A stretch of 64,000 bases of DNA from Candidatus Saccharimonadota bacterium (GCA_016187125.1 JACPKF010000001.1:38931-102930); one strand, 5' to 3'. Counted from the first letter of the stretch, positions 7,733 to 48,551 are shown. Numbers and translations are program-made. The notes: a model not told the origin generated them from the letters alone.

Positions 7733-7735
7733 AAT

Positions 7736-19832: not shown

Positions 19833-19915
19833 AGGAAGCTCCCTTCGGTCGCTTAAATAACAATAAGCAATCAACAGTAAACATGTTTGTTATTTTTTTG
19901 CTTATTGCTTTTTGC
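19833..19915 (-). repeat. rplM-rpsI spacer, family D hairpin (AACAATAAGCAA / TTGCTTATTGCT around AAACATGTTT)
   Basis: Arms are complementary at 11 of 12 positions. The right arm runs into the rplM stop. Confidence 0.6.
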
Positions 19916-20374
19916 TTATTGCTCATTGTCTTTAGCCCTGCCTTTCTTTGGCTCAAACTTTTGAGGATTTTGAGCGTTGTGATGATGCTCATTACCGGCA
20001 TAGATTTTTAAACGATCCAAACGGGCTTTACGTAGTTTATTTACTGGCAGCATCCCTCTTACAGAATGCCTAATAACTTCTACGGAGTCTTTTTTAATGC
20101 TTTCTTCTAAGGTCCTCTTATATAAACCTCCGGGAAATCCGCTGTGACGGTAATATGTTTTCCCTCTCAGTTTATTACCAGTAGTAATTAGTGAATCAGC
20201 ATTTATTATAATTACGTAATCCCCAACATCAATGTGAGACGTTATAGTCGGTTTATCCTTACCGAGTAACAGGCGGGCGGCAATTGTAGAAAGACGGCCT
20301 AAAGGGGTCAAAGAAGCGTCCAGAATGTGCCAGACACGCGATACATCAGTTGGCTTGGCGCTATAAGTCTTCAC
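19916..20374 (-). CDS. rplM: 50S ribosomal protein L13
   Basis: MKTYSAKPTDVSRVWHILDASLTPLGRLSTIAARLLLGKDKP is typical L13. It carries a short basic C-terminal tail. Confidence 0.9.
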   Translation of the reverse strand: MKTYSAKPTDVSRVWHILDASLTPLGRLSTIAARLLLGKDKPTITSHIDVGDYVIIINADSLITTGNKLRGKTYYRHSGFPGGLYKRTLEESIKKDSVEVIRHSVRGMLPVNKLRKARLDRLKIYAGNEHHHNAQNPQKFEPKKGRAKDNEQ

Positions 20375-20492
20375 ACTACTCCTTCGGAGCCATTAACCAT
20401 TAGCCATTTACTATTTACCGCGCATTGACCATTAGCCATGAGCCATGGACTAACGGTGAATGGATAACGTATGGTGAACGGTGACGTAGTCA
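20375..20492 (-). repeat. rplQ-rplM spacer, family A (CCATTA/CCATTT arm and GGTGAA/GGTGAACGG arm)
   Basis: CCATTAACCATTAGCCATTTACTATTTACC...AACGGTGAATGGATAACGTATGGTGAACGGTGA. Confidence 0.7.
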
Positions 20493-21038
20493 TTACCTGT
20501 TGCCCCTTCTGCCGGTTCGCCGGGCGGCTTGGGTGACAGCAGTCTTAGCGCTGATCTTTTGCTTATCACTAAGGATTGTTGCTTGGGGCTTAGCTGTAGC
20601 CGATTTCTCGGTTTTAGTATGACTTTTAGTGGTCACTTTTTCCGCAGTTTTGAGTGTTTTATCGTCGCTTTTTATCGACAAGTCATCAACAAAACTGACT
20701 TTGGCCATTTGGGCGTTGTCACCGCGCCTGGATTCGGTTGAGGTCACCCTAAAGTAGCCACTGTTGCGGCCGACTAACCTGGGTGAAAGTTCATCAACTA
20801 ATTTGTGAGCTGCTTCGAGTGTAGCTAAGGAACTAATAACCTGACGTCGATTATGCAAATCGCCTTTTTTAGCCTTGGATATAAGTTTTTCCATATGCGA
20901 AACAACAGCTTTAGCTTTTGGCAGGGTTGTTTGGATTGAGCCTTGCAAAATCAGACTATCGGCTAGTGACTTCATAAGGGCTCGTCTTTGGTCGCGCTGC
21001 CTACCAAATTTCGCGCCTTTGTATCCATGTCTATGCAT
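20493..21038 (-). CDS. rplQ: 50S ribosomal protein L17 with about 60-aa C-terminal extension
   Basis: MHRHGYKGAKFGRQRDQRRALMKSLADSLI. Start re-called to the ATG at 21038, with GGAG upstream. Confidence 0.88.
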   Translation of the reverse strand: MHRHGYKGAKFGRQRDQRRALMKSLADSLILQGSIQTTLPKAKAVVSHMEKLISKAKKGDLHNRRQVISSLATLEAAHKLVDELSPRLVGRNSGYFRVTSTESRRGDNAQMAKVSFVDDLSIKSDDKTLKTAEKVTTKSHTKTEKSATAKPQATILSDKQKISAKTAVTQAARRTGRRGNR

Positions 21039-21146
21039 TAGCGAACTCCGTTCGCAGTAGTAAGTAGTAAGTAGTAAGTAGTAAGCCAGCCACAAAGCTG
21101 CTTTTTATTTGCCTATTGCTTACTACTTCTTGCTTTTTACGCATTT
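21039..21146 (-). repeat. rpoA-rplQ spacer, family D (four AGTAAGT repeats and a GCTTACTAC arm)
   Basis: AGTAGTAAGTAGTAAGTAGTAAGTAGTAAGC...GCTTACTACTTCTTGC. Confidence 0.65.
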
Positions 21147-22091
21147 TTAGAGTTCCAGCTCGGACATTTTCTCTTTAACTTCATCTAAAGCCTTGTTACC
21201 AAAACCTTTAAGATCACGCAGTTCGGCTTCACTCAGAGATAGCAAGTCTTTAATAGTTTGTATTTCATTATTAACTAGAGCGTTTGTGGTGCGGGCGCTT
21301 AAATTGAGATCCTCAATTGACGTCATGAGTTCGGCTGGTTCATCTGTCTCGGTTTGCGTAGAATCTACTTCGCTACCATTAAACAAGCTACCAGCTTCTA
21401 CCTTGGTCTGGCCGGCCAGAGCCGTGTATTGATTAACTAATATGGCTGAGGCTTCTTCAAAAGCGTCCCTAGGCGTAATTGAGCCGTCTGTGTCAACGGT
21501 CAGAAGCAATTTATCAAGATCAGTCATTTGGCCTACACGGGTGTTCTCGACTTTGTAGCGTACTCTAAGAACGGGCGTAAACAAGGCATCAAGCATGATC
21601 ATATCAGTAACTTTTTTGCTGAAGCCTTGTTCGTCTAGAGCCCTATAGCCTCTACCTGTCTCGACTAATATTTCCATCTCGAGCGAAGCCTTAGGGTCAT
21701 CAATCCTGCAAATAATCTGATCTGGGTTAACTACTTCCACGTCAGCGTTGAGTTGCAAGTCTTTAGCTTTGACTATACCCTTACCTTTTTTAGATAGTCG
21801 TAATTCTTGCGGCTCATCACTAAAAACTCGGAAGCGTATAGATTTAAGATTCAACATAATAGCTACAACATCTTCTTTAATACCTGAGATAGTTGTAAAT
21901 TCGTGGCTAATGCCTTGGACTCTAAAGCCAGTCACTGCGGCTCCGGCAATTGATGATAGCAGGACCCGTCTTAGACTATTACCAAGCGTCATGCCGTAAC
22001 CAGGATGCAGTGGTTCGATGGTGAATGTGGCGCTAGTCGGGTGATGGTCTATTACTGCGCCCAGGCTTGGTGTGTGAATAAGTTTACTCAT
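21147..22091 (-). CDS. rpoA: DNA-directed RNA polymerase subunit alpha
   Basis: 314 aa with N-terminal FTIEPLHPGYGMTLGNSLRRVLLSSI and a C-terminal alpha-CTD (LNLSARTTNALVNNEIQTIKDLL). Confidence 0.92.
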   Translation of the reverse strand: MSKLIHTPSLGAVIDHHPTSATFTIEPLHPGYGMTLGNSLRRVLLSSIAGAAVTGFRVQGISHEFTTISGIKEDVVAIMLNLKSIRFRVFSDEPQELRLSKKGKGIVKAKDLQLNADVEVVNPDQIICRIDDPKASLEMEILVETGRGYRALDEQGFSKKVTDMIMLDALFTPVLRVRYKVENTRVGQMTDLDKLLLTVDTDGSITPRDAFEEASAILVNQYTALAGQTKVEAGSLFNGSEVDSTQTETDEPAELMTSIEDLNLSARTTNALVNNEIQTIKDLLSLSEAELRDLKGFGNKALDEVKEKMSELEL

Positions 22092-22111
22092 AATGTTATC
22101 TACTTGCCTCC

Positions 22112-22732
22112 TTAACGCGAGTAGTACTCAATAATTAATTGTTCTTTAATATCAGATTCAGCATCATCTCTTGAAGGTAATCCATTAACGGATAGTTGTA
22201 CTTGCTTGCGGTCGACTTTGATCCAGGTCGGAGTGGATGGTGCCGGTGGGCTTAGCTCGTCAAGATGTTTAAAATATTCGTTCTTTTTGGCATGAGCATG
22301 TAAGGTAATCTTGTCGCCAACCTTAACTCGGATGGATGGAATATCTACTCGGCGGCCATTAAGCATGAAATGGCCATGTGTTACCAGCTGTCTGGCTGCT
22401 CGCCGACTTACGGCAAGGCCACTGCGGTAAATAACATTATCGAGTCGTCGTTCCAAAAATTCTAGCAGCATGGTCCCGGACTGACCTTTTCTACGGACCG
22501 CTTCCTCTAAAAGATTGGCGAATTGTTTTTCAAGTAAACCGTAAAGGCGTTTAACCTTTTGCTTTTCACGAAGCTGTAAACCGTATTGGCTAGATTTAGT
22601 GCGTCTGTAAGTCTGAGTTCCTTGCTGGCCTGGAGGTCCTACGCGCTTGACAAGAACTTTATGAGCTTTGGGGTGAAGTGCATAACTTTCACGACGAGAT
22701 TGCTTGACTATTGAGCTTAAATCTCTGGCCAT
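22112..22732 (-). CDS. rpsD: 30S ribosomal protein S4
   Basis: MARDLSSIVKQSRRESYALHPKAHK. S4 domain reads LDNVIYRSGLAVSRRAARQLVTHGHFMLNGRRVDIPS. Start re-called to 22732, with GGAGG upstream. Confidence 0.9.
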   Translation of the reverse strand: MARDLSSIVKQSRRESYALHPKAHKVLVKRVGPPGQQGTQTYRRTKSSQYGLQLREKQKVKRLYGLLEKQFANLLEEAVRRKGQSGTMLLEFLERRLDNVIYRSGLAVSRRAARQLVTHGHFMLNGRRVDIPSIRVKVGDKITLHAHAKKNEYFKHLDELSPPAPSTPTWIKVDRKQVQLSVNGLPSRDDAESDIKEQLIIEYYSR

Positions 22733-22892
22733 CAGGCAACCTCCGGTTGCAGCAATAAGCCCGCCTTTGCCATGGCTACGGCGGATAGACAATAAGCAAT
22801 AAGCCATAAGCCAGTCCGTTTAAGCGGACTGCTAAGTTGCAATCCTTTTTGCATTTTGCATTTTGCATTTTGCTGAAAAATGTTGAGCATTT
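22733..22892 (-). repeat. rpsK-rpsD spacer containing the 60-nt repeat copy (22748-22812), a GTCCGTTTAAGCGGAC hairpin and three GCATTTT repeats
   Basis: 22748-22812 is near-identical to 23875-23938. Confidence 0.75.
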
Positions 22893-23360
22893 TTAGTTCC
22901 TCTTCGCCTTCCGTGGCCTAACACCTCCATGTGGTGTGCCGGTAACATCTCTGATGTTATCCACGCTAATCTGTCTGGCAACCAAAGTCCTTATAGCCGC
23001 CTCGCGGCCCATGCCAATTCCATTGACAAACACATCTACTTTGCTGACGCCATAAGTTTTGGCAGTTTCTACAGCCTTTTCGGCGGCTATTTGGGCTGCG
23101 TAAGCTGTACCTTTTTTAGAACCACGGAAGCCGCAGCTACCAGCACTGGCAGCTGCGAGGGTATTTCCCTGGATATCCGTAACAGTAATTATAGTGTTAT
23201 TAAAAGTAGCCAAGACATGGACTTGTCCTTGGGTAACAGTCCGGCGATGCTTCTTTTTCTTAACAGTCTTTGGTCTTGTGTCTATAGACGTTTCTTCGGG
23301 TTGGTTACTTTTGCCAACTACTTCTTTTACTTCATCTACGGTAGCTATCTTATCTGCCAT
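22893..23360 (-). CDS. rpsK: 30S ribosomal protein S11 with about 30-aa N-terminal extension
   Basis: GQVHVLATFNNTIITVTDIQGNTLAAASAGSCGFRGSKKGTAYAAQ is the S11 core. Preceded by CGACTGGAAGGAG. Confidence 0.9.
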   Translation of the reverse strand: MADKIATVDEVKEVVGKSNQPEETSIDTRPKTVKKKKHRRTVTQGQVHVLATFNNTIITVTDIQGNTLAAASAGSCGFRGSKKGTAYAAQIAAEKAVETAKTYGVSKVDVFVNGIGMGREAAIRTLVARQISVDNIRDVTGTPHGGVRPRKAKRN

Positions 23361-23472
23361 AAGACACTCCTTCCAGTCGCTTTAGCTACTCGCTGAAAGC
23401 TATGAGCTGAGAGCCGAAATGCAGCGGCTAGGGGCACTAAGCTAGGGACTCTAAGCTGATGATTGTAGGCAA
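23361..23472 (-). repeat. rpsM-rpsK spacer, family B
   Basis: In mRNA sense it reads ATGATTGCCTACAATCATCAGCTTAGAGTCCCTAGCTTAG...TAGCTAAAGCGACTGGAAGGAG, homologous to 28406-28525 and 28922-29044. Confidence 0.7.
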
Positions 23473-23859
23473 TCATGTTTTGGCTGCTACCTTCTTAGCA
23501 GTACCGCCAACGGTAATTTTTTTACCTCGTTTTGTACGAGCATTAGTGCGGGTTCTTTGGCCCCTTGTAGGTAGATTGGCTTGATGCCGCAGTCCCCTAT
23601 AAGCCTTAATGTCTTTCAAGCGCTTAATATTACCGGTTACGACCCTCTGAAGTTCACCCTCCACAGTATAGTTATTGGTTATGATCTCCTGGAGTTTTGA
23701 CAGCTCAGAGTCAGTTAGATCTTTGACTCTAACTGTTTGCTCAACTTTAGCGCTTGACAGTATTCTACTGCTTAGCTGCGGCCCAATACCATATATATAA
23801 GTTAGCGCAATTTGCACTTGCTTGTTATCCGGGATATTTACACCAGCCAGTCTAGCCAC
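23473..23859 (-). CDS. rpsM: 30S ribosomal protein S13
   Basis: (M)ARLAGVNIPDNKQVQIALTYIYGIGPQLS. GTG start with GGAG 7 nt upstream. Confidence 0.92.
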   Translation of the reverse strand: MARLAGVNIPDNKQVQIALTYIYGIGPQLSSRILSSAKVEQTVRVKDLTDSELSKLQEIITNNYTVEGELQRVVTGNIKRLKDIKAYRGLRHQANLPTRGQRTRTNARTKRGKKITVGGTAKKVAAKT

Positions 23860-23985
23860 GTGCGAACTCCGTTCGCGGTAATAAGCCCGCCTTTGCCATG
23901 GCTACGGCGGATAGACAATAAGCCATAAGCCATAAGCCTTCTTGCTTTATGCTTCTTGCTCTACGCTTAAAAATGCTACGCATTT
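23860..23985 (-). repeat. rpmJ-rpsM spacer containing the second 60-nt repeat copy (23875-23938)
   Basis: TAATAAGCCCGCCTTTGCCATGGCTACGGCGGATAGACAATAAGCCATAAGCC. Confidence 0.75.
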
Positions 23986-24102
23986 TCAGCCTTGCCTCTG
24001 TTTATGCTTAGGTTTTTTCTTATTAATAATATATACTCGTCCCTTACGGCGGACGACTTTGTCATCCGGACTAATTTTTTTGACGCTAGCACGCACTTTC
24101 AT
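23986..24102 (-). CDS. rpmJ: 50S ribosomal protein L36 (Cys-less, zinc-independent type)
   Basis: Below the ORF-track size cut-off. My translation is [43 protein letters not shown] lies upstream. Confidence 0.85.
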
Positions 24103-24227
24103 CCCGTTAGACCTCCGCTCCGCGGCATCCCGTTAGAGGCAAGAATTGGGAAAATTCTGCCGGTTCGCTAATGCGAACCGGGCCTCTAACGGGATTAGGT
24201 CTAACGGGATGAACCCCGTTAGAAGCC
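24101..24227 (-). promoter_or_regulatory. nested inverted-repeat RNA structure overlapping the rpmJ SD/AUG (five copies of CCCGTTAGA/TCTAACGGG)
   Basis: Perfect pairings are 24101-24113 with 24198-24210, 24127-24140 with 24182-24195, and an alternative TCTAACGGG at 24200-24208 with CCCGTTAGA at 24215-24223. Inner hairpins span 24142-24158 and 24160-24181. Confidence 0.6.
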
Positions 24228-24371
24228 CAATTTGTTTGCAAATCGGCAAATATTCCGCTTCTAATCGGGGTCACGCTAATAGTTAGGTTGTTAGTCGTTG
24301 CACGCATTCTAATCCCCTTCTATGGATTTACTGCGGATCCGCTAAATTTATTAGCGAACACACTGCTTAAA

Positions 24372-24593
24372 TCAATTTTCGCGGTAAGTTATCCGACCCT
24401 TCGTCAGATCGTAAGGTGTCAATTCTACCTTAACGCGGTCTCCTGGCACGAGGCGAATATAGTGCTTACGCATCCTGCCGGCTATGTGAGCCATAATTAT
24501 ATGGCCGTTTTCGAGTTCAACTCGGAACTGGGTACCGGGTAGAGCCTCTACGACTGTACCAGCCAGTTCAATTACCTCTTTTTCACGGGCCAT
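24372..24593 (-). CDS. infA: translation initiation factor IF-1
   Basis: [71 protein letters not shown]. Confidence 0.93.
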
Positions 24594-24650
24594 AAATACA
24601 ACCCGAACATTTTAACAAAAACTTCATCTGTTGTAAAGAGGCTTTCAGAA

Positions 24651-26177
24651 TTACTTTTTAGGCCGTTTTAATTTGGGTAAAAAACGCAGGCGCCTGGCGC
24701 CAGTCGCCGCCAACCCTCCCTCGGCCGGTTCGTAGAAGTAATCGGGCTGTTCATATTGATCATAAGTAATCATTAAGGCTCTTGACTCGACCTGGCGCAG
24801 TGTTTCTAGTGACACCGAGACTAAAATTAAGATGCTAGTGCCACCGATCCCGAGGGCAATGTTTGGATCAATCCATCTTGAAGCAATAATTGGCATTACG
24901 GCCAAAAAACCGAGGGCTGTAGCGCCAAACAGTGTTAGTCTGTTCACAGTTTTGCGAAGATAATGCTCGGTTTGCTTGCCAGATCTGATGCCGGATAAAA
25001 AGCCGCCTTGCTTTTGCAAGTTTTCGGCAATTTCTTTGGAGTTAAAGGTTACACTAGTGTAAAAATAAGTAAATATAAATACTAAGAAAAAATAGGTCAA
25101 TGGATAAATCCATGGTTGCCAGCCCCCAACCGCAAAAGTTGCTGCAGTTGGGTTTTGGAACAATTGACTTAAGAGTACCCCAAATCTTTCCCAGCTTGTA
25201 TCAGCAGCAAGTGCTGTCCCTTGGCCTTGGGTTAGAAGTTGACCGGCAAAACCTGGAACAGCCAAAAAAGCCACAGCAAAGATAATTGGAATTACGCCGG
25301 CTGTAATAAGCTTAACCGGTAAAGTCGTAGTTACTCCGCCATAAGTTCTGTTGCCCTGCACTCTTTTGGCATAATTAACGGTTAGCCTGCGCGATGCCTC
25401 GTTGAGTTTTACGACTGCCCATATCACAAACAGCGTAGCTGCACTAATAATACTAACGAGGATCAGGCCGTGGCGGCTAAAATTATGATTTAGGATGGTT
25501 AGTTTATCACCGCTGTTCGTCGCTATCCAAGTGGTGCTACGAGCCAGCTGGGTGATAATGCTAGGCAAACTACTAACAATCCCGACCGTAATCAGAAGCG
25601 ATATGCCATTGCCAAGGGATCGCTCGGTGATTAATTCTCCAAGCCACATCAGTATCATAGAGCCACCGGTGAGAGCAGCGATCATCAGGGTCCATTGACC
25701 AATTGAAGTATTGGCAGTTATATCGCCCAGGCCGCCAAGACTGGAAGCCGTTTGACGAATCAAGTAGATCAAACCTACGGATTGAACGATAGCTAAAGGA
25801 AAAGTTAGCATGCGGGTAAATTGGTTGATTTTCTTACGTCCAAACTCGCCTTCCTTATTCATAGCTTCTAATTTCGGGATGGCTTTGGTAAGCAACTGCA
25901 TGATGATGCTGGCATTAATATAAGGCCCCAGTCCTACAAGCATGACTGAAAAATTACCGAGGGCTCCTCCTGATAGGACGTTCAAAAAGCCTAACAACTG
26001 ATTATTACTGGTCTGGGTAAAAAGATTTTCAAGGACTTGCTTTAAGGTACTCGGATCACTTAAAGGCACCGGAACATGAGCCAAAATTCGGAACACCAGC
26101 AGCATTCCAAGAACAGCCAAAATACGCTTTCGCATCTCACTGTGGCCAAGAGATTTAAGAATTATTCCCCAATTCAC
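24651..26177 (-). CDS. secY: preprotein translocase subunit SecY (long form, 508 aa)
   Basis: Multi-pass membrane protein in the canonical position after rplO. GTG start with GGAGGG upstream. Contains YINASIIMQLL and GGTSILILVSVSLETLRQVE. Confidence 0.9.
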   Translation of the reverse strand: MNWGIILKSLGHSEMRKRILAVLGMLLVFRILAHVPVPLSDPSTLKQVLENLFTQTSNNQLLGFLNVLSGGALGNFSVMLVGLGPYINASIIMQLLTKAIPKLEAMNKEGEFGRKKINQFTRMLTFPLAIVQSVGLIYLIRQTASSLGGLGDITANTSIGQWTLMIAALTGGSMILMWLGELITERSLGNGISLLITVGIVSSLPSIITQLARSTTWIATNSGDKLTILNHNFSRHGLILVSIISAATLFVIWAVVKLNEASRRLTVNYAKRVQGNRTYGGVTTTLPVKLITAGVIPIIFAVAFLAVPGFAGQLLTQGQGTALAADTSWERFGVLLSQLFQNPTAATFAVGGWQPWIYPLTYFFLVFIFTYFYTSVTFNSKEIAENLQKQGGFLSGIRSGKQTEHYLRKTVNRLTLFGATALGFLAVMPIIASRWIDPNIALGIGGTSILILVSVSLETLRQVESRALMITYDQYEQPDYFYEPAEGGLAATGARRLRFLPKLKRPKK

Positions 26178-26249
26178 AGAACGCCCTCCGGTCGTTCTAG
26201 CATAAAGTAAAAAGTAAAATGTAAAAAGCGATCAACCCGAAGTACTTCC
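26178..26249 (-). repeat. rplO-secY spacer, family D-like (AAAGTAAAAAGTAAAATGTAAAAAG / CTTATTGCTTATTACTTTTTGC)
   Basis: The two arms are partly complementary. Confidence 0.55.
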
Positions 26250-26729
26250 TTATTGCTTATTACTTTTTGCATCTTGCTTCTTTTGGCGTCCGACTTGATC
26301 TACACTTGTAAAACTGCCACCGGCTTTGGTTACCAGTTCTACTGCTGATTTGCTAGCTAATTGTAGTTTCACATCTTTTTTTGAGCTTAGCTCACCATTA
26401 ACAATAAGTTTGACTTTTACAAAAGGCGTTGAAGTTAAGCCGGCTTCAAAAATAGCCTGATTATCAATTACAGCTTTCTTGATAGTTCCCAACTGCCCGG
26501 TATAAACAACTTCAACAGCGGGGGCATGGCTCTTGAAGCCTCTAAGTTTTGGCAACCGCATATATAGTGGCATTTGTCCGCCTTCAAAGCCCGGTCTGAC
26601 GCCGCCGCTTTTGCGTGCACCCTGGCCTTTGGTTCCCCGTCCGGCCGTCTTGCCGCGACCAGCGGCTATACCTCGGCCAGGGCGCCGAGGTATAGCCTGT
26701 CTTGGTACTTCCAGATTGTTATATTTCAT
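26250..26729 (-). CDS. rplO: 50S ribosomal protein L15
   Basis: GRGIAAGRGKTAGRGTKGQGARKSGGVRPGFEGGQMPLYMRLPKLRGF. Confidence 0.9.
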   Translation of the reverse strand: MKYNNLEVPRQAIPRRPGRGIAAGRGKTAGRGTKGQGARKSGGVRPGFEGGQMPLYMRLPKLRGFKSHAPAVEVVYTGQLGTIKKAVIDNQAIFEAGLTSTPFVKVKLIVNGELSSKKDVKLQLASKSAVELVTKAGGSFTSVDQVGRQKKQDAKSNKQ

Positions 26730-26821
26730 AGACTACCTCTCTTCGAGTCTGAGCCTGAGGCTCATCCCTCAGAGTCGAACGACGAGTAGTAGTCTCTAGT
26801 CCAAAGTCTCCAGTTGACAAG

Positions 26822-27409
26822 CTATTCATTATTTTTTCCCTTCGGGGTGTGGTCCTTAATTTTTCTCTTGACTGATAACTGATGACTGTCGACTGTCGAC
26901 TGCGAAGCACTTTGCTTGACCCTAGTTACCCACTTGTCAGCTGAAACCATAGACTGTAGAGCTGCTAGCGTGGCGTAAGCAGTATTGATGCGATTAGATG
27001 AGCCGAATGATTTTGACAGGGCATTTTCGAAGCCACTGACTTCAAGTATTGTCCTGACAATACCGCCAGCGATAAGACCTGTTCCCGGAGCTGCAGGTAA
27101 GATTAAGATGTGCGCCCCACCGACTTTTGCCTCCACTTCGTGAGCTAAGGTGCCTTTATAAATAGGTAGCTTTGTAAGATGTTTTTTAGCTACACCAGTA
27201 GCTTTTGTAACGGCGGCTGAAACGTCCGCGCCCTTACTAACTCCTACGCCTACTTGCCCTTTATGGTCGCCAACCAGAACAAGTGCCTGGAACCTGAACC
27301 GACGACCACCTTTAACCACTCTGGCAACGCGATTAACATAAATAACTCGCTCATCAAAGGTTCTTTCTTCGGTCAATCCTATAGCTTTGTTGGAGGTATA
27401 AGCTGACAT
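26822..27409 (-). CDS. rpsE: 30S ribosomal protein S5 with about 30-aa C-terminal extension
   Basis: [42 protein letters not shown]. Confidence 0.9.
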
Positions 27410-27509
27410 CAGACATTCCTCCCAGTTGCGAGAACTAGTGAATAGTAACTAGGAATTAGTTTTTTCACCGCTTTCTGATGGCCATTTACTAATTGCTTAA
27501 GGAATAGCA
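27410..27509 (-). repeat. rplR-rpsE spacer, family C
   Basis: GAGAACTAGTGAATAGTAACTAGGAATTAG...CCATTTACTAATTGCTTAAGG. Confidence 0.6.
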
Positions 27510-28405: not shown

Positions 28406-28525
28406 AAAAAGCTCCTTGCAGTCGCTTTAGCTAACAGCTGATAGTCCTTGGCTGATAGCCTGAATGAAGCGGCTAAGAGCTGAGAGCTAAGAGCTAATGG
28501 CTCATGATGAATGTAATGATTCATT
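28406..28525 (-). repeat. rpsH-rplF spacer, family B
   Basis: In mRNA sense it reads ATGAATCATTACATTCATCATGAGCCATTAGCTCTTAGCTCTCAGCTCTTAGCCGCTTCATTCAGGC...GTTAGCTAAAGCGACTGCAAGGAG. Confidence 0.75.
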
Positions 28526-28921: not shown

Positions 28922-29044
28922 CAGACGCTCCTTTCAGTCGCTCCAGCTGTGAGCTGATGGCTGTTAGTAAAGAGCCGGATTGAAGCGGCTAAGGACTCTA
29001 AGCTAAGGACTCTAAGCTGATGATGAATGTAATGAATCATATTC
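28922..29044 (-). repeat. rpsN-rpsH spacer, family B
   Basis: In mRNA sense it reads ATGATTCATTACATTCATCATCAGCTTAGAGTCCTTAGCTTAGAGTCCTTAGCCGCTTCAATCCGGC...GGAGCGACTGAAAGGAG. Confidence 0.75.
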
Positions 29045-29314: not shown

Positions 29315-29499
29315 CTAAACGCCTCCTTTCGTCGGTTCAGTTAACAGTTTCCTATTACCGATTACCTGTGAGTTATCTATTACCGGTGGCCAACTGTTAA
29401 ATGACAGATGTGAATTTAATAGTAAACCCGAAAAGGCCCCGTTGGGACCCTCGGGTCCCTTTACGGGATGGTAAATGGTAAATGGTAAATTGAGCAATT

Positions 29500-30093: not shown

Positions 30094-30217
30094 TAGGGCA
30101 GCCTCCGACTTATAAAACAAACTACATGGTTTTTCCTATCGGATTTTTTGGGGTAAGTCCAAACTCCGCAGACAGCGGGATCGGTCCATGGTTTTTTCCT
30201 TAATTCCAAATATATCA
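30094..30217 (-). repeat. rplX-rplE spacer, family F (homologous to 34845-34937)
   Basis: GGTTTTTCCTATCGGATTTTTTGGGGTAAGTCCAAACTCCGCAGACAGCGGGATCGGTCCATGGTTTTTTCCTTAATTCCAA. Confidence 0.7.
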
Positions 30218-30604
30218 TTATTTAAGTTCCTTACCACTAGACTTCAAGATACGTCGTTTCGAGCCGTCGTTAAAAGATTTAAAACCGATTCTTGAAGGTT
30301 TTTTTGAACCAGAATCAAGTAGACCAACTTTGCTTACCCAGATCGGCTTGGTGATTTCAATAATTCCGCCTTGAGGTGATAGGCGAGCCGGTTTTTTGTG
30401 GCGTTTGACGATGTTAATACCTTCCACGGTAACTTTATTCAGAGCCGGATGAATTTGAAGTATTTTTCCGGTATGGGCTTTATACTTTCCGCTTCTAATC
30501 ATTACTTCGTCGCCTTTTTTCAACCGAATCTTATACACCTTTTTGGTTATCGCTTTTTGCCTGTCCACCGTAGCCTTGGCGAAGGCGGACTTTTTGCTTG
30601 TCAT
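30218..30604 (-). CDS. rplX: 50S ribosomal protein L24 (N- and C-terminally extended as called)
   Basis: [30 protein letters not shown] core. The ATG overlaps the rplN stop (ATGA). The first 25 codons contain the 32-nt repeat element, so the true start is uncertain (alternative GTG near 30529). Confidence 0.85.
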
Positions 30605-30972
30605 AGTACCTCCGGAGCCAGGGAAATTATACGCCCGTAGCCTTTTTCACGTAACTCTCTTGGAACCGGTCCAAAAACACGTGTTCCTTGAGGCGTCTTG
30701 TTATCTTCGGCTAAGACGACTGCCGCGTTATCATCAAACCTGATAGACGAGCCGTCTTTACGAACTATCGGACTGCGAGTTCTGACTATAACTGCTTTGA
30801 TGATAGATTTACGTTTGACTACGCCAGCCGGATTAGCCGTTTTGACGCTGGCTACAATAATATCGCCAACCCGAGCATAACGACGGCGGCTGCCACCTAG
30901 GACACGGATACACAGCAGTTGACGGGCGCCGCTGTTGTCTGTCGCTAGTAACCTGGTCTCCTGCTGAATCAT
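30601..30972 (-). CDS. rplN: 50S ribosomal protein L14
   Basis: [44 protein letters not shown]. Confidence 0.93.
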
Positions 30973-31162
30973 AGGGAAGCTCCTTGTCCTCGCGGCCTTC
31001 GACTGCCGCTCAGGCCGCCCTGAACATGTTGTCCTTCGACTATCCTCTCCTCGAGTCTGAGCGACCTCGGAGTCGAAGACAGGACGACCCTGAGCATCTG
31101 TCGAAAGGGTCGAATGGGCGCAGAATGGAGAATGGAGACTGGAGAATGGAAGGCTATCAACT

Positions 31163-31540
31163 TCATTTCTTTTTGTCCTTATCTTTGCTCTGTGTAATTT
31201 TTGCAGTTTCGAGTTTCTGATTACTTCGTAGTTCTTTTATCGCACCTTCAGGTGCTTCTTGTGGAACGTCGGCAATTGCATCCTGTTCTTCGAAACCGCC
31301 ACGAGCAGACTCCAAAATTCTGTCCAAAGTAAATCGCTTGCGGGCCGAAATCGGACGACTTTCTTTGATAATCACTAAGTCGCCAATTTTGGCCAGGTTT
31401 TTCTCGTCATGGGCCATGAATTTAGTATTAATAGTGTACTGTTTCTTATACAAAGGGTGTGTTTTACGGGTAGCTACTGTAATAACTATAGTTTTATCAG
31501 GTTTATCACTAGAAACTCTGCCAGTTAATAGCCTACTCAT
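31163..31540 (-). CDS. rpsQ: 30S ribosomal protein S17 with about 40-aa C-terminal extension
   Basis: [35 protein letters not shown]. Start re-called to 31540. Confidence 0.88.
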
Positions 31541-31673
31541 TACTGATCTCTCTTGCCAATCATAGCAACTAGCAAATAGCAACTAGGAAATAATACTTTC
31601 CCTAATTGCTTATTACCTGCCCGCCATAGCCTCGGCGAAGGAGGGCTAATTGTTAATTGCCTGAACCGCAGCA
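31541..31673 (-). repeat. rpmC-rpsQ spacer, family C, plus a diverged copy of the 32-nt element (31616-31645)
   Basis: CATAGCAACTAGCAAATAGCAACTAGGAAATAA...CTAATTGCTTATTACCTGCCCGCCATAGCCTCGGCGAAGGAGGGC. Confidence 0.6.
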
Positions 31674-31874
31674 TCATAGGCCCTCCTTGGCTAACTGTTC
31701 GCCTAGAACCGTTAAGACACGGGCTAAATCTTTACGCTTAGTTCGGATAATTCTAACATTCTGAGTCTCGCCACTATATAATCGGCGACGCAGCTCAATG
31801 ATTTCCTCACGCAGCTGTGAACTTTGAGTTGCCAGTTGAGCAGTAGGTAATTTACGGATATCAGCAATTTTCAT
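31674..31874 (-). CDS. rpmC: 50S ribosomal protein L29
   Basis: 66 aa reading MKIADIRKLPTAQLATQSSQLREEIIELRRRL. Lies between rplP and rpsQ. Confidence 0.85.
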   Translation of the reverse strand: MKIADIRKLPTAQLATQSSQLREEIIELRRRLYSGETQNVRIIRTKRKDLARVLTVLGEQLAKEGL

Positions 31875-31885
31875 AATCAGCTTCT

Positions 31886-32302
31886 TTATTGCTCGTCCTT
31901 CATGATAAAACCGCTGTTAAGCGGCAATTTATGACCTGCCAAACGTATAGCTTCACGAGCTATATCTTCACTTACACCATCCATTTCAAATATAACTGTG
32001 CCTGGCTTAACTTTAGCGACAAAAAATTCTGGGTTACCTTTACCGCTGCCCATTTTGGTGCCGAGCGGCTTGAGGCTTACAGGAATATGCGGGAAAACTC
32101 GAATCCATATTTGGCCACCACGTTTGATATACCGAGTCATAGCTTGGCGAGCTGCTTCTATTTGGCGACTGCTGATACGTTGGCTGTCCTTGGAGATAAG
32201 ACCATAATGGCCATAAGCCAATTCGGTCATAGAAGTAGCACTGCCGCCGTGAATGCGGCCTTTACGAACTTTACGGTACTTTGTGCGTGATGGCATTAAC
32301 AT
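31886..32302 (-). CDS. rplP: 50S ribosomal protein L16
   Basis: MLMPSRTKYRKVRKGRIHGG... Confidence 0.93.
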   Translation of the reverse strand: MLMPSRTKYRKVRKGRIHGGSATSMTELAYGHYGLISKDSQRISSRQIEAARQAMTRYIKRGGQIWIRVFPHIPVSLKPLGTKMGSGKGNPEFFVAKVKPGTVIFEMDGVSEDIAREAIRLAGHKLPLNSGFIMKDEQ

Positions 32303-32393
32303 GCTCTACCTCCGGTAAAGCCATTAACCATTAGCCATTTACTATTTACCATTGTGAACGGTGAACGGTGAACGGTGAATGGGAATGACGGAG
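32303..32393 (-). repeat. rpsC-rplP spacer, family A (three CACCGTT repeats pairing with AATGGTA-type repeats)
   Basis: In mRNA sense, CATTCACCGTTCACCGTTCACCGTTCAC-A-ATGGTAAATAGTAAATGGCTAATGGTTAATGG. ACCGTT/AATGGT pairs include a G.U wobble only on the transcribed strand. Confidence 0.7.
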
Positions 32394-33026
32394 TCATGTC
32401 GTTTCGCCTCGGTAAATCCAAACTTTAACTCCTATAACTCCGGCTCCGGGGTATGTGGCTGTGGCACTGGCAAAATCAATATCGGCTCTTAAGGTATGGA
32501 GTGGCACACTACCCTGAACTTCTTTTTCGCGCCGACTCATTTCATTACCGCCCAAACGACCGGCAATCTCAATTCTAACTCCTTTGGCTCCAGCGCGAAT
32601 AGTCGAAGATGCTGCCATTTTTATGGCTCTACGGAAAGCAATCCGTTTTTGCAGCTGGTGAGCTATGTTTTCTGCTACCAATTTAGCTTGCAGCTCAGGC
32701 CGTTTGATTTCCTCGATATTGACACGGACAGGCACACCATAAAGCTTCTCAACTTCATTCTTAAGCTCACTAGCACCAGTACCACCACGACCGATAACAA
32801 CACCGGCCTTAGCGGTCTGAATAGTAACTGTCACCAGATTAGGTGAACGCTCAATATCAACTTTGCTGACAGCCGCACGGTTACCAAGCTTAGCGATAAT
32901 TAGGCGGCGAGCAGCTAAATCTTGCATCAAATAGGTAGCGTAATCTTTTTTGTTAACAAACCATTTACTGCGCCAATCCTTATTAACTTGAAGTCGCATA
33001 CTTATTGGGTTGACTTTTTGACCCAT
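32394..33026 (-). CDS. rpsC: 30S ribosomal protein S3
   Basis: MGQKVNPISMRLQVNKDWRSKWF. Preceded by GCGACTGGAAGGAGCGACTG-ATG. Confidence 0.93.
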   Translation of the reverse strand: MGQKVNPISMRLQVNKDWRSKWFVNKKDYATYLMQDLAARRLIIAKLGNRAAVSKVDIERSPNLVTVTIQTAKAGVVIGRGGTGASELKNEVEKLYGVPVRVNIEEIKRPELQAKLVAENIAHQLQKRIAFRRAIKMAASSTIRAGAKGVRIEIAGRLGGNEMSRREKEVQGSVPLHTLRADIDFASATATYPGAGVIGVKVWIYRGETT

Positions 33027-33135
33027 CAGTCGCTCCTTCCAGTCGCTTGAGGAACTAGAAAATAGTAAATAGAAACTAGCCGACCGAATCCTACAGCTGT
33101 TTTTACTAATTTCTGATTACTAATTGCTAATTTCA
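33027..33135 (-). repeat. rplV-rpsC spacer, family C
   Basis: GAGGAACTAGAAAATAGTAAATAGAAACTAG...TACTAATTTCTGATTACTAATTGCTAATTTC. Confidence 0.65.
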
Positions 33136-33516
33136 CTACTCTGACTCCTTTTTGGTCACGAGCTCTCTTTTTTTACTGACTCTTTTCTCGCCATCGACGA
33201 TGACACGGATGTGGCTAGTTTTGCGGGCAAACCGCAGTGCGCGTCCACGGGCTGCGGATCTATACCTTTTGAGCCGTGATCCTGGAGTGACAGTAATTTC
33301 AGTGATGTTTAAAGAATCAGGCTTAAAATTGTGGTTATGCTCAGCGTTAGCTCGTGCGCTAATTACGGCCTGCTTGACTGCTTCCGCGGCTCGTCTGGGT
33401 GTATGATCAAGAATCACAATAGCATCAGCGACACTACGTCCACGCACCAAAGCTGCCACTACGCTAACTTTACGCGGGCTCATTCTAACACCTTTATAAA
33501 TAGCCTGGACTGTCAT
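33136..33516 (-). CDS. rplV: 50S ribosomal protein L22
   Basis: [37 protein letters not shown]. The ATG overlaps the rpsS stop. Confidence 0.9.
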
Positions 33517-33836
33517 TGCCGTTCTTCTGCCTCGGGCTTAGTAGTTGTATTATCTGCTCCCGCCTCTTGACTTTTTGCTAGTTTGCCACCATGAACTCGA
33601 AATTTACGGGTCGGCGAGAATTCACCAAGTTTGTGGCCAACCATATTTTCGGTAATAAACACCGGCACATGCACTTTGCCGTTGTGTACGGCAATGGTGC
33701 GCCCTACAAACTCTGGCGCAACAGTACAAGCTCTAGCCCACGTTTTAACTACGCTGCGATCATCAGCGCCAAGCTTGGCTATTTTCCTAGCCAACTTGGG
33801 ATCAACGTAAGGCCCCTTTTTTAACGAACGTGACAT
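33513..33836 (-). CDS. rpsS: 30S ribosomal protein S19 (short C-terminal tail)
   Basis: [19 protein letters not shown]...[29 protein letters not shown]. Start re-called to 33836, with GGGAGGAG upstream. Confidence 0.9.
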
Positions 33837-33943
33837 CGTTAACACTCCTCCCGTTCAGGTATAGGGTATGCCGTATAGGGTATAAAGTATGCAGCTTCAT
33901 TTTTATACCTAATACTTAATACCGAATACGAAATACTCACTAC
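33837..33943 (-). repeat. rplB-rpsS spacer with a TATAGGGTA / TACCTAATAC-type dyad
   Basis: GGTATAGGGTATGCCGTATAGGGTATAAAGTATG...TATACCTAATACTTAATACCGAATACGAAATAC. Confidence 0.55.
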
Positions 33944-34780
33944 TTATTTCCTCTTTCCTAAGTGGCGGCTTCTGATAATAAACTTGTTAGTTGCCTTACG
34001 CCGCCTGGTTTTATAACCCAGGGTTTTTTGGCCCCACGGAGTCGTTGGCGGACGGGCCATGCGGTGACGGCCACCATCGCCACCGCCGTGTGGGTGATCA
34101 GCCGCCGCCATAACGACACCTCGAACGGTTGGTCTGATACCCATACGACGTTTACGGCCGGCGCTGCCGATTTTAATATTCTGGTGTTGCTCATTGCCCA
34201 CCGGTCCGATTGAAGCCATGGAATTGATACCGACCAGTCTAATTTCTCCGCTTGGCAATCGGACTTGGGCAGAGATTTCATCTTTAGCAACTAATTGGGC
34301 GCTGGAACCGGCGGTCCGAGCCAGTTGCCCGCCGCGACCAGATTGAAGTTCAACCGCGTGGATAACGGTACCAACTGGAATGTTTTTTAGAGGCAAACGA
34401 TTACCAATTTTTATGGAGGCTTCTTCTTCAACACTGACTTTTCTGCCCGGTTTCATACCCTTAGCTGCCAGTACATAGTGACGGTGTCCATCTTGATCTT
34501 TAATAAGAGCTATACGAGCGCTGCGGTTAGGATCGTATTCTATTTGTTCGACAGTAGCCGTCGTCCCCGGCGCCAGAGCGAAGTTAAGCAAGCGGTAAAA
34601 ACGACGTACGCCACCGCCTCGGTGGCGGGTTGTGATTCGGCCTTGATTGTTGCGTCCCTCGGAGCCTTTTTTAATCATTGTTAAGCCGCGCAGCGGCTTT
34701 TTGGTGGTAACACTGTCAAAGTCCTGAGTGCTCATGCCTCTTCTGGCTGGAGATGTCGGCTTGTAATCACGAACAGCCAT
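33944..34780 (-). CDS. rplB: 50S ribosomal protein L2
   Basis: 278 aa containing GRNNQGRITTRHRGGG and MAAADHPHGGGDGG. Confidence 0.94.
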   Translation of the reverse strand: MAVRDYKPTSPARRGMSTQDFDSVTTKKPLRGLTMIKKGSEGRNNQGRITTRHRGGGVRRFYRLLNFALAPGTTATVEQIEYDPNRSARIALIKDQDGHRHYVLAAKGMKPGRKVSVEEEASIKIGNRLPLKNIPVGTVIHAVELQSGRGGQLARTAGSSAQLVAKDEISAQVRLPSGEIRLVGINSMASIGPVGNEQHQNIKIGSAGRKRRMGIRPTVRGVVMAAADHPHGGGDGGRHRMARPPTTPWGQKTLGYKTRRRKATNKFIIRSRHLGKRK

Positions 34781-34937
34781 TACTGCGCCTCCGGCTTATA
34801 GGACAAACCTACAGTACTATCACCCCGCAAAACTTGTTTTGCGGGGACCCCGGTTTTTCCTATCGGACCTTTTGGAATAAATCCAAATCCGCCTGGGCGG
34901 ACCGGTCCTTTCTTTTCCCTTAACTTCAAGAGGGACA
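34781..34937 (-). repeat. rplW-rplB spacer, family F (homologous to 30094-30217), plus a CCCCGCAAAAC..GTTTTGCGGGG hairpin
   Basis: GGTTTTTCCTATCGGACCTTTTGGAATAAATCCAAATCCGCCTGGGCGGACCGGTCCTTTCTTTTCCCTTAACTTCAA. Confidence 0.7.
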
Positions 34938-35264
34938 TTACTTCTTCTCCTTCTTGGAGGAATTATCAGAATCGGCAAAAAATGGCAGTTTATCTCCGTC
35001 TTTCAACGTGACATAGGCTTTATGGCTGGCTGGCCGGGCAGTTTTAACAAACTTGCCTCGCCTTTTATAGGATCTAAGCGGCTTGGGCGCGACTTGGTTC
35101 AAACGCACGGCTTGAACGCCTACTTTATATTGGGAAGTAACTGCCCTGGCAACTTCGAACTTATTGATACCAGCCGGCACGTCAAAAACATAGGTGTTTA
35201 GCGTTTCGCTGGCAGCATAGGCCTTTTCACTCAGCCTTGGCTTTAGCGCTATTAGCTTAAACAT
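34938..35264 (-). CDS. rplW: 50S ribosomal protein L23
   Basis: LKPRLSEKAYAASETLNTYVFDVPAGINKFEVARAV. Lies between rplD and rplB. Confidence 0.85.
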   Translation of the reverse strand: MFKLIALKPRLSEKAYAASETLNTYVFDVPAGINKFEVARAVTSQYKVGVQAVRLNQVAPKPLRSYKRRGKFVKTARPASHKAYVTLKDGDKLPFFADSDNSSKKEKK

Positions 35265-35405
35265 CTACAGCTCCTCCAGAGCCATTTAACGTTAGCCATT
35301 TACCGTTTTCCGTACATTTACCATTAGTCATTAACCATTTGTTAACGGTAAACGGATAACGCATGGTGAAGGCTGAACGGTGAAGGGTGAACGAGAAATG
35401 ACCTG
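35265..35405 (-). repeat. rplD-rplW spacer, family A
   Basis: About 90% identical to 36062-36160 over roughly 95 nt (CCATTTA.C.TTAGCCATTTACCGTTTT.CGTACATTTACCATTAGTCATTAACCATTTGTTAACGGT.AACG). Confidence 0.8.
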
Positions 35406-36044
35406 TCATTTCTTTTCCCCTAGCCATTCATGAATAATATCTAAAGCTTTTTTACTGATTACGATTTGATCGGCATTCAAAATATCTAAAACACTTAAAT
35501 AGTTAGTTTGTATGGCTTTGACCAGTGGTAAGTTGCGAGTTGCTCGTTCAACTAGATCATCTTTGAGACTTACAACTAGTAGCACGGAGCCTTGTGAGCC
35601 AATTTTGTTGAGTAGGTTGAGCGTTGGTTTTACTTTGCCGTCCTGGCATTCAAATGTTTCAATAATTTTGATTTTATCGGCTTGAGCCGCCAGACTAAGA
35701 GCCTGACGAAGAGCCAAACGTTTAGCAGAAGTTGTAATCTTGCGAGTGTAATTCTCATTTCCGGTTGGGCCAAAAGCCACACCACCGCCAGTCCAAATAG
35801 GATTTCTGGATGATCCAAAGCGGGCTCTGCCCGTACCTTTCTGACGCCAGGGTTTTTGGCCACCGCCACGAACCTGGCTTCGTTTTTTTGTCTGAGCTAA
35901 ATTTGGCCGGCTGTTGGCCAAATGAGCTAGGTAGACGTCCTTTAACAGTTGATGATTCTTTACATCAACATCGAAAATTGCCTTATCTAGCTTAGCAGGA
36001 GACGAGGCTTTGTTACCGGATTTCGTGAATGTAGTAACAGCCAT
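35406..36044 (-). CDS. rplD: 50S ribosomal protein L4
   Basis: MAVTTFTKSG...RGGGQKPWRQKGTGRARFGSSRNPIWTGGGVAFGP. Start re-called to 36044, with GAAGGAG upstream. Confidence 0.9.
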   Translation of the reverse strand: MAVTTFTKSGNKASSPAKLDKAIFDVDVKNHQLLKDVYLAHLANSRPNLAQTKKRSQVRGGGQKPWRQKGTGRARFGSSRNPIWTGGGVAFGPTGNENYTRKITTSAKRLALRQALSLAAQADKIKIIETFECQDGKVKPTLNLLNKIGSQGSVLLVVSLKDDLVERATRNLPLVKAIQTNYLSVLDILNADQIVISKKALDIIHEWLGEKK

Positions 36045-36186
36045 CACATTGCTCCTTCGGATCCATTTACCATTAGCCATTTACCGTTTTTCGTACATTT
36101 ACCATTAGTCATTAACCATTTGTTAACGGTGAACGAGTAACTCACGGTGAACTGTGAAGGGTAAAAGGTAAAAGATAACGATGTCA
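36045..36186 (-). repeat. rplC-rplD spacer, family A
   Basis: See 35265-35405. In mRNA sense, the arms TTCACCGTTAAC and GTTAATGAC... flank AAATG. Confidence 0.8.
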
Positions 36187-40062: not shown

Positions 40063-40092
40063 ATTATAAGTTAAACTTTGCCTTTTTGTAAA
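40063..40092 (-). promoter_or_regulatory. candidate tuf promoter TTTACA-18-TATAAT
   Basis: Minus strand carries TTTACA at 40092-40087 and TATAAT at 40068-40063, directly after the fabD stop. Confidence 0.4.
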
Positions 40093-40099
40093 GAAGTTA

Positions 40100-43514: not shown

Positions 43515-43515
43515 A

Positions 43516-48505: not shown

Positions 48506-48551
48506 ATGCAGCTCCTTTCAGTCGCTTAGGTAAAATATGAAATGCTAGATG

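Follow-up and report, generated by a model that had tools for sequence, protein, structure and literature searches.

Introduction

Mycobacterial interspersed repetitive units (MIRUs) insert at start codons, so that their internal open reading frame (ORF) becomes coupled to the gene (2025 review, PMC12548453); the ends of this ORF overlap the adjacent genes, and a related species has empty sites (earlier review, PMC3184786). For the primary description of MIRUs, Supply et al. 1997, we follow the account given in these two reviews. Rickettsia palindromic elements (RPEs) are likewise palindromes translated in frame (Ogata et al. 2000, as cited in PMC3184786). Here we report on the spacers that separate most genes of a ribosomal-protein supercluster in a 64-kb stretch of DNA from a Candidatus Saccharimonadota bacterium (JACPKF010000001.1; hereafter the window, with positions counted from its first letter). 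The region studied lies on the minus strand and runs from rplC (36804) to rpsI (19434). The spacers are made of tandem 7-nt units (heptamers) set in two partly complementary arms. By sequence comparison they are real and more than chance, and about 20 of them are inserted at start codons of ribosomal-protein genes that overlap their neighbours in relatives; each of these has kept an ORF, here called the relay ORF, which probably lets translation carry on from one gene to the next.

Few parts of bacterial genomes are as compact and conserved as the ribosomal-protein operons, and the genomes of Saccharibacteria are very small. To find some 25 insertions among the translation and transcription operons of a single genome of this kind is unexpected. 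An earlier reading of this window, made from the sequence alone and called here the sequence-only reading, had noted the spacers and their repeats. It had not registered the ORFs that run from the upstream stop to the downstream start, which are the strongest strand-specific signal, and it was unaware that relatives have overlapping genes at these junctions and that the spacers were inserted there.

Results

Spacers and the junctions of relatives

Each of the 29 genes from rplC to rpsI has a match among the NCBIfam equivalogs, and the start calls hold because the profile matches begin mostly at position 1-2. With these curated starts, spacers of 57-269 nt occupy 23 of the 28 junctions and amount to 2,919 nt, or 16.8% of the 17,371-nt stretch. 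Three gene pairs overlap (rpsS/rplV, rplN/rplX and rplF/rplR), and short gaps separate rplP from rpmC (11 nt) and rpsD from rpoA (20 nt). The sequence-only reading had counted 23 of 28 junctions, about 2.9 kb and about 17%, with the same three overlaps and two gaps of at most 20 nt, and our recount reproduces it. An alternative genetic code was considered and rejected, as the TGA-ending genes align with the C-termini of relatives.

The 29 genes were located in 160 loci, about 78 of them from Saccharibacteria, and every junction was measured; labels such as L003 and L032 denote loci in other genomes. In most of the Saccharibacteria loci the genes meet at these junctions in TAATG or ATGA overlaps, with a spacing of -4 to +3 nt. 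Only rplO|secY, secY|infA and infA|rpmJ are always longer, and on this comparison the three corresponding window spacers are ancestral. In an alignment of four compact relatives at each junction, the Shine-Dalgarno sequence AAGGAG forms part of the final codons of the upstream gene, the upstream proteins ending like ...KKEKK before the stop, and the window proteins have the same C- and N-termini. The compact junctions in relatives, together with the unchanged protein termini, indicate that 20 of the window spacers are insertions specific to this lineage, each located precisely at a start codon.

A scan of species-representative genomes with L5 placed the source in Saccharibacteria (Saccharimonadales), the nearest representative having 74% L5 identity. 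In the genome and metagenome contigs scanned with L5 no relative exceeded this value, and an exact-protein look-up of L14 returned no record; as no closer relative was found, compensatory change between orthologous inserts could not be compared. Partial versions of the system are present elsewhere, with 12 junctions of at least 50 nt in L032, 11 in L018, 9 in L019 and 5 in L004, and single inserts in L083, L100, L102, L105, L109 and L113; in all of these the architecture is the same and the heptamers are different. The loci of other phyla have ordinary spacers, with strong period 7 in only 1 of 71. Because most relatives have no spacer at these junctions, neither position nor structure is conserved as it would be for a processing or stability hairpin, and the conservation in relatives by which the earlier reading had proposed to judge its RNA-level role is missing.

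Relay ORFs

One sense frame is free of stops in 20 of the 23 spacers, the other two frames containing 1-7 stops. An open antisense frame was found in 3 of 23, and dinucleotide shuffles gave 6.4±1.9 (maximum 13 in 1,000). We defined a strict relay ORF as one that starts between -25 and +10 nt from the upstream stop and stops between -6 and +21 nt from the downstream start. Such an ORF is present in 21 of the 23 spacers, compared to 2.2±1.3 (maximum 7) when the interiors were shuffled and to 1 when the spacers were inverted in place. The two spacers that fail, secY|infA and infA|rpmJ, are both ancestral, and all 20 insertions therefore carry a relay ORF. The relay start coincides with the position at which the downstream gene starts in relatives, next to the upstream stop, and keeps the old ribosome-binding site of that gene, while the relay ORF ends on or beside the real gene start, which has a new Shine-Dalgarno sequence. 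Typically, the 5' end reads TAATG or ATGA, and the 3' end TGATG or ATGA. Among 27 spacers of 70-260 nt in the relatives, the sense strand is open in 21 and the antisense strand in 5.

Five further relay inserts lie outside the supercluster, at rpoB|rpoC, rpoC|rpsL, rpsL|rpsG, nusG|rplK and secE|nusG, and no frame is open in the heptamer hairpins of the tuf leader and rplA|dcd, two sites that are not coupled. The consensus heptamers are free of stops in 20 of 35 cases in sense and in 8 of 35 in antisense, for a random expectation of 61%; what keeps the frame open is chiefly the irregularity of the arrays rather than the consensus heptamers, and the heptamer counts are weak support. Between paralogous relay copies dN/dS is 0.51, 0.82 and 0.84, and the conserved core of Family F, a motif described below, stands in different frames in different copies when the sequences are read by eye. 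The peptides are not conserved and, as judged from these comparisons, the relay peptide is not the selected feature.

Structure of the elements

From 5' to 3', an element begins with a start codon that coincides with the upstream stop or adjoins it and often belongs to a mini-hairpin of 5-6 bp, such as ATGAC-N3-GTCAT or AAATGC-N3-GCATTT; the latter appears as AAATGT...ACATTT in L032, a compensatory change. The two heptamer arms follow, then a 3' module that provides a new and strong Shine-Dalgarno sequence, either GCGACTGnAAGGAGC or a short hairpin with a GGA loop (AACCGGAGGTT, CGAACGGAGTTCG), and finally a stop codon that overlaps or abuts the real gene start. There are six copies of GCGACTGnAAGGAGC in the window and others in L003, L004, L032 and L105, and every copy within the Saccharibacteria loci is on the sense strand. 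In viral contigs, a scan for the 3' module AGCGACTGRAAGGAGC gave matches at about the chance level, plus an unrelated repeat in a giant-virus metagenome-assembled genome. The elements measure 80-190 nt, with a GC content of 0.34-0.57, and each junction has a single hairpin element. At the ends of the inserts, the direct repeats (ATG, ATGA, TAATG(A), GTAATG) are indistinguishable from functional start/stop overlaps. A minimal insert of 42 nt is found at rpsC|rplP of L003 (8207-8248), where the 5' mini-hairpin ATGACGAAGTCAT is joined to the module GCGACCGAAGGGAGCG without heptamer arms, perhaps as a core or precursor of the elements.

The mean anti-Shine-Dalgarno duplex energy is -6.1 kcal/mol at relay starts and -8.8 kcal/mol at gene starts, for a background of -2.1 kcal/mol. 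Base pairing is higher at relay start codons than at control gene starts (0.65 versus 0.46, p = 0.017), and likewise at the downstream Shine-Dalgarno windows relative to their controls (0.57 versus 0.41, p = 0.002). This pairing fits an initiation that depends on an arriving ribosome, although the effect is modest.

Tandem Repeats Finder detected in the window arrays of almost only period 7 or 14, nearly all of them inside these spacers. Repeat families D1-D13 were found, in which element copies at different junctions are 65-91% identical over 77-128 nt. Against dinucleotide shuffles the 23 spacers have a mean folding z of -1.8, single values ranging from +1.6 to -9.7, and 9 of the 23 reach -2 or less; taken together they clearly depart from randomness, but many of them singly do not. 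Much of what the sequence-only reading had proposed is borne out here. It had seen short tandem motifs arranged as two arms, on which Tandem Repeats Finder and folding agree, and the comparison with shuffles that it had suggested shows that the arms do pair, as a set, although weakly for many spacers taken singly. Its sequence families were found again as D1, D2, D5, D7/D8/D10 and D12, as were its copies outside the cluster, at nusG-rplK, rpsL-rpsG, rpoC-rpsL and rplA-dcd. The spacers are thus, as it had stated, not filler, being structured repeat elements that form families and recur at other translation and transcription operons. It knew of no described system of this kind, and no Rfam family matches the spacers: above the gathering threshold the window has only tRNAs, and relaxing the search to E <= 1 added nothing but a spurious match to a microRNA.

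The same reading had taken the non-Watson-Crick positions to be G.U on the transcribed strand, and on this point the data are different. The summed folding energy is -839 kcal/mol in sense and -836 kcal/mol in antisense (mean z -1.8 versus -2.2), symmetric mismatches in Watson-Crick-only folds are G/T in 15 cases and A/C in 14, and the minimum-energy folds contain 100 G.U pairs in sense and 109 in antisense. When six spacers were folded with a standard tool, the antisense strand was as stable or more stable in five, including the two examples from which the claim had been made (32303-32393, antisense -29.6 versus sense -27.0 kcal/mol; 36045-36186, antisense -31.6 versus sense -30.9 kcal/mol). 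Since sense and antisense fold equally well, the palindromes bear no sign of optimisation for the mRNA strand. The earlier description of structured repeat elements is retained, but the strand evidence given for an RNA-level role is lost, with no G.U bias and no folding advantage of the sense strand. Translational insulation, another of its suggestions, is close in spirit, but the relay ORFs point to a coupling that is preserved, not insulated.

The inserts occupy 28 of the 33 junctions of translation and transcription operons versus 0 of the 7 other co-directional junctions of the window (Fisher p = 4e-5), in a small sample for which we assigned the operon classes ourselves. Possible causes are a benefit, a target preference for consensus ribosome-binding sites, or a dependence on high expression.

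The elements along the window

The elements that follow, as far as the hairpin of rplA|dcd, are on the minus strand. At rplC|rplD, a family A insert of 142 nt (D1, 36045..36186) holds a relay of 47 aa (36187..36044) with TAATG at its 5' and TGATG at its 3' end; its 84% identical copy at rplD|rplW (D1, family A, 35265..35405, 141 nt) has a relay that extends from an ATGA overlap to 8 nt past the rplW start. The rplW|rplB insert (34781..34937, 157 nt) consists of a Family F motif with a nested hairpin and is bridged by 52 aa, with GTAATG at both ends. The relay of rplB|rpsS (33837..33943, 107 nt, heptamer arms) begins with a GTG 3 nt beyond the stop and finishes 2 nt short of the rpsS start, and that of rplV|rpsC (33027..33135, 109 nt, family C, D3) starts on a GTG at -1 and ends in TGATG, with GCGACTGGAAGGAGCG as 3' module. 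A family A insert of 91 nt at rpsC|rplP (32303..32393) is read from an ATGA overlap to 7 nt past the rplP start. The next two inserts are at rpmC|rpsQ (31541..31673, 133 nt, family C, D5 and D6), with a nested GC-rich mini-hairpin and a relay of 45 aa, and at rpsQ|rplN (30973..31162, 190 nt, GC 0.57), with a relay of 65 aa and ATGA at both ends.

Within L24 (rplX), a GC-rich mini-hairpin element is fused in frame at the N-terminus (30538..30604), giving an extension of 25 aa, and the L24 profile match begins at residue 26. Downstream, rplX|rplE (30094..30217, 124 nt, Family F motif) has a relay of 41 aa with TAATGA at both ends, and rplE|rpsN (29315..29499, 185 nt) one of 62 aa that goes from an ATGA overlap to a TAG abutting the rpsN ATG. 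Two family B inserts (D2) follow, at rpsN|rpsH (28922..29044, 123 nt, relay of 39 aa ending in TGATG) and at rpsH|rplF (28406..28525, 120 nt, relay of 40 aa ending in ATGA). The rplR|rpsE insert (27410..27509, 100 nt, family C, D5) carries a relay of 33 aa from TAATG to TGATG. At rpsE|rplO (26730..26910) there is a 92-nt insert, and heptamer arrays have been turned into a C-terminal extension of S5 of about 33 aa (26822-26910).

The three ancestral spacers come next. That of rplO|secY (26178..26249, 72 nt), which measures 50-250 nt in relatives, has here a heptamer array and a Shine-Dalgarno hairpin. The 57-nt spacer of secY|infA (24594..24650) lacks a relay ORF and does not belong to the elements; it contains a promoter-like TTTACA-17-TAAAAT with an upstream TG (24609-24637), and similar-looking promoter sites were seen by eye in the secY|infA spacers of L018, L019 and L032. 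The infA|rpmJ spacer (24103..24371, 269 nt), also without relay ORF, is expanded by TCTAACGGG/CCCGTTAGA inverted repeats, a motif that also flanks junction inserts in L018 and L019, and folds much more strongly than any other spacer (-120 kcal/mol, z -9.7).

The relay of rpmJ|rpsM (23860..23985, 126 nt, family D, D7 and D8; 43 aa) starts in the 5' mini-hairpin AAATGCGTAGCATTT. The relay of rpsM|rpsK (23361..23472, 112 nt, family B, D2 and D3), also of 43 aa, extends from an ATGA overlap to 16 nt past the rpsK start. At rpsK|rpsD (22733..22892, 160 nt, family D, D8) it has 52 aa and ends in TGATG, and this insert is 91% identical to the rpmJ|rpsM copy over 77 nt. The last inserts of the supercluster are those of rpoA|rplQ (21039..21146, 108 nt, family D, D13; relay of 37 aa, Shine-Dalgarno sequence in the hairpin GCGAACGGAGTTCGC), rplQ|rplM (20375..20492, 118 nt, family A, D1 and D4; relay of 40 aa, TAATG to GTGA) and rplM|rpsI (19833..19915, 83 nt, family D), in which the relay starts inside the end of rplM and stops 11 nt past the rpsI start. 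A hairpin of 17 bp followed by a T-run (19321-19358) is the terminator that marks the end of the operon after rpsI.

Outside the supercluster, the rpoB|rpoC insert (48506..48769, 264 nt) has a relay of 93 aa from an ATGA overlap to 14 nt past the rpoC start, that of rpoC|rpsL (44512..44665, 154 nt) a relay from a GTG at -4 to TAATG, and those of rpsL|rpsG (43996..44100, 105 nt, families C/D) and nusG|rplK (8165..8267, 103 nt, end TGATG) a relay ORF each. At secE|nusG (8811..8925), with heptamer arms and the Shine-Dalgarno hairpin GCAACCGGAGGTTGG, the relay ORF was read by eye. The hairpin of the tuf 5' leader (39869..40099), at an uncoupled site, has heptamer arms with 5, 6 and 10 stops in its frames and provides an internal contrast. 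The heptamer hairpin of rplA|dcd (6304..6426) has the 3' module GCGACTAGGAGGAGC and no relay ORF.

The Family F motif consists of GGGAAAAGA, a variable hairpin and GGCGCGATAGGAAAAACCGTAGGTTTGTCCTAT. It occurs on the minus strand of the window at 34793-34921 and 30107-30201, and elsewhere in L012 (8753-8831), L083 (9902-9980), L102 (1368-1446), L084 (4100-4177) and L004 (6603-6680), at different junctions in different genera. Of its cells 92% are paired, and 12 of 20 pairs are changed on both sides. In L004 and L084 it lies directly upstream of secY, with a Shine-Dalgarno sequence in its loop. It has no Rfam match and may be an undescribed RNA motif in its own right. The GC-rich mini-hairpin CCGCC-TTCGCCAAGGCTAC-GGTGG is present in six copies, in both orientations and nested in larger inserts (48737-48760, 31621-31644, 30565-30588, 23887-23910, 22761-22784 and 7230-7253), and is read in frame as part of the N-terminal extensions of L24 and L1. 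L1 has 341 aa (6427-7452), and its N-terminal extension is probably repeat-derived.

Other features of the gene order were noted. An acyltransferase gene (PF01553, 37042-37830), on the plus strand between rpsJ and rplC, splits the usual S10 operon. The gene rpmD (L30) is absent between rpsE and rplO, and adk and map are absent between secY and infA (24651-26250 region), which agrees with what is reported for this bacterial group. Small non-repetitive ORFs that start at or beside the upstream stop are wedged into three junctions, tuf|rpsJ (38320-38682, 120 aa), rpsG|fusA (43233-43529, 98 aa) and rplK|rplA (about 7520-7735), the first two having no Pfam match. In L005, L013, L018, L019, L032 and L086 an ORF of about 100-120 aa lies between rplB and rpsS (300-367 nt; L032 6377-6743, L018 238-540, L019 6075-6389), and those of L018 and L019 are similar by eye.

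Discussion

We think it probable, on balance, that these spacers are palindromic repeat elements which colonise coupled junctions and are tolerated because they relay translational coupling. Elements would insert, or be copied, at coupled junctions, and would survive only where the coupling is rebuilt. The ribosome would terminate at the upstream stop, begin anew on the old ribosome-binding site, which is still present in the last codons of the upstream gene, translate the relay ORF of 30-65 codons straight through the hairpin, terminate on the new downstream start and reinitiate there. The translational coupling of the ribosomal-protein operons would then be unbroken by the insert because the relay ORF bridges stop to start. 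The 65-91% identical copies at different junctions, and the modules common to different genera, imply copying between sites. The elements may have spread by transposition, by recombination between similar ribosome-binding sites or by local growth through slippage, and they could be tolerated parasites or could be beneficial, for instance by giving a stronger Shine-Dalgarno sequence or by stabilising the mRNA.

Several points weigh against this proposal. The translation of the relay ORF and the reinitiation that follows are deduced from sequence. No transposase or mobilising gene was found in the 64-kb window, where ten unassigned ORFs were compared with Pfam, and the repeats at the insert ends, which could be target-site duplications, could equally well be functional start/stop overlaps. 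The arms, which differ from junction to junction, also fit a local growth by slippage. The gain or loss of single inserts is untraceable because the closest relative has only 74% L5 identity. The covariation of Family F is real, so that at least one family is under structural constraint. Finally, a purely parasitic model does not predict the enrichment in translation and transcription operons, and there may be a benefit.

That the hairpins are instead functional mRNA elements, i.e. stabilisers between cistrons, sites of RNase processing, insulators or protein-binding sites under selection in highly expressed operons, with a relay ORF of secondary importance, seems to us unlikely, although worth serious consideration. 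It would account for the folding of the spacer set relative to shuffles, for the concentration in translation and transcription operons, for the conserved structure of Family F and for the mini-hairpins at the relay start and the higher pairing of the Shine-Dalgarno sequence than at control starts; moreover, the repetitive extragenic palindromic (REP), enterobacterial repetitive intergenic consensus (ERIC) and Correia elements affect mRNA stability in other bacteria (PMC3184786). However, neither energy nor G.U pairing favours the sense strand, most Saccharibacteria have no inserts at the same junctions, the arm sequences are not conserved between genomes, Rfam gives no match, and a hairpin constantly unwound by translating ribosomes would make a poor stable barrier. 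A selected function of another kind, which we judge decidedly unlikely, is that of a lineage-specific relay coupler giving each highly expressed cistron its own strong Shine-Dalgarno sequence and a hairpin-gated initiation, and/or of heptamer arms that are the substrate of an undescribed machinery targeting the start codons of highly expressed genes. If this were true, two small hairpins that only an arriving ribosome can open would gate initiation, and the coupler would enforce a sequential and stoichiometric translation along the 17-kb ribosomal-protein mRNA.

Could the spacers have grown in place, by heptamer slippage and quasipalindrome (template-switch) correction, with no mobile element and with selection keeping open in-frame bridges? 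Nearly all tandem arrays have period 7 or 14, the arms vary by junction and by genome, and the armless 42-nt insert of L003 could be a minimal version. Whole-element copies at different junctions are not accounted for in this way, and neither is the recurrence of the 5' and 3' modules and of the Family F core at different junctions in different genera, which requires copying between sites; we therefore hold growth in place to be very unlikely. It is hardly credible that the small ORFs encode functional small proteins: they are open and have start codons and Shine-Dalgarno-like sequences, but dN/dS is 0.5-0.8 between copies, their translations are those of low-complexity heptamer repeats, the Family F core is read by eye in differing frames, and they are absent from most relatives. 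Hairpins between ribosomal-protein genes also look superficially like attenuators, and the window comes from an assembly, but we give almost no credence to terminators, attenuators, known ribosomal-protein autoregulatory leaders or assembly artefacts. No spacer hairpin is followed by a T-run, the only convincing terminator being the one after rpsI (19358-19321); among 29 terminator-like sites in a scan, one weak site (34903..34886) lies inside a spacer, and intrinsic termination or attenuation, which calls for a GC-rich stem followed by a U-run, was rejected. No Rfam leader was matched even at E <= 1, the same architecture is present in independent assemblies, and precise in-frame bridges cannot come from misassembly. 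A promoter function of the spacers was also rejected, as no promoter-like sites were found in the insert elements, the secY|infA site lying in a non-element spacer.

An open relay frame has been kept by every insertion at a coupled junction, and this shows how strongly translational coupling limits insertions in these operons. The inserts constitute a natural set of "bicistronic design" junctions. They also matter for annotation, as gene callers will report dozens of spurious small hypothetical proteins or will mis-extend ribosomal-protein genes.

We found in the literature no description of such elements for Saccharibacteria or Patescibacteria; only analogues were found, the MIRUs, the Neisseria REP2 repeats and the RPEs. 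REP and bacterial interspersed mosaic elements (BIMEs), ERIC and Correia elements and MITEs (miniature inverted-repeat transposable elements) are also imperfect palindromes, co-transcribed in operons, multi-copy and forming families within a genome. They are generally untranslated, and many have defined terminal inverted repeats and target-site duplications, or a REP-associated tyrosine transposase (RAYT) or insertion sequence (IS) transposase; the spacers described here are marked out by an open sense frame with start/stop overlaps. A REP or BIME is a GC-rich palindrome of 20-40 nt with a conserved 5' tetranucleotide and a RAYT, whereas the elements here have 80-190 nt and there is no RAYT in the window; of the terminal inverted repeats flanked by target-site duplications that mark a MITE, long inverted arms are seen here, with direct repeats at the ends that could be duplications or start/stop overlaps. 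REP2 resembles them in bringing a ribosome-binding site and start context to a downstream gene, with internal stem-loops (PMC3184786), but it also carries a promoter and lies upstream of genes, not bridging two coupled cistrons. RPEs are palindromic repeats of about 100-150 bp, translated in frame with the host gene intact, as in the three copies here that became extensions of L24, S5 and probably L1. Unlike RPEs, which lie inside coding sequences, most copies here are separate mini-ORFs between genes, and in-frame palindromic insertion into host proteins holds for a minority, the N-terminus of L24 and the heptamer-derived C-terminus of S5.

When the architectures are compared, the closest analogue is the mycobacterial MIRU. 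Both are short repeats at start codons in polycistronic operons, oriented with the genes and containing internal inverted repeats; in both, the ends of the ORF overlap the flanking stop and start and coupling is kept, and related species have empty sites. As to location, 20 inserts stand at junctions that measure -4 to +3 nt in relatives, with unchanged flanking protein termini; as to the ORF, it is present in 21 of 23 spacers and in 20 of 20 insertions. The differences are in construction and host. MIRUs are units of 40-100 bp, often in tandem arrays (variable-number tandem repeats, VNTRs), GC-rich and restricted to mycobacteria, whereas the elements described here have internal repeats of period 7 or 14 and are single heptamer-arm hairpins of 80-190 nt, one per junction, with their own 3' Shine-Dalgarno module, in Saccharibacteria and concentrated in ribosomal-protein and RNA-polymerase operons. 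With another phylum and another GC content, homology to the MIRU consensus sequence would not be expected. The elements would be a second, independent example of the strategy proposed for the mycobacterial MIRUs.

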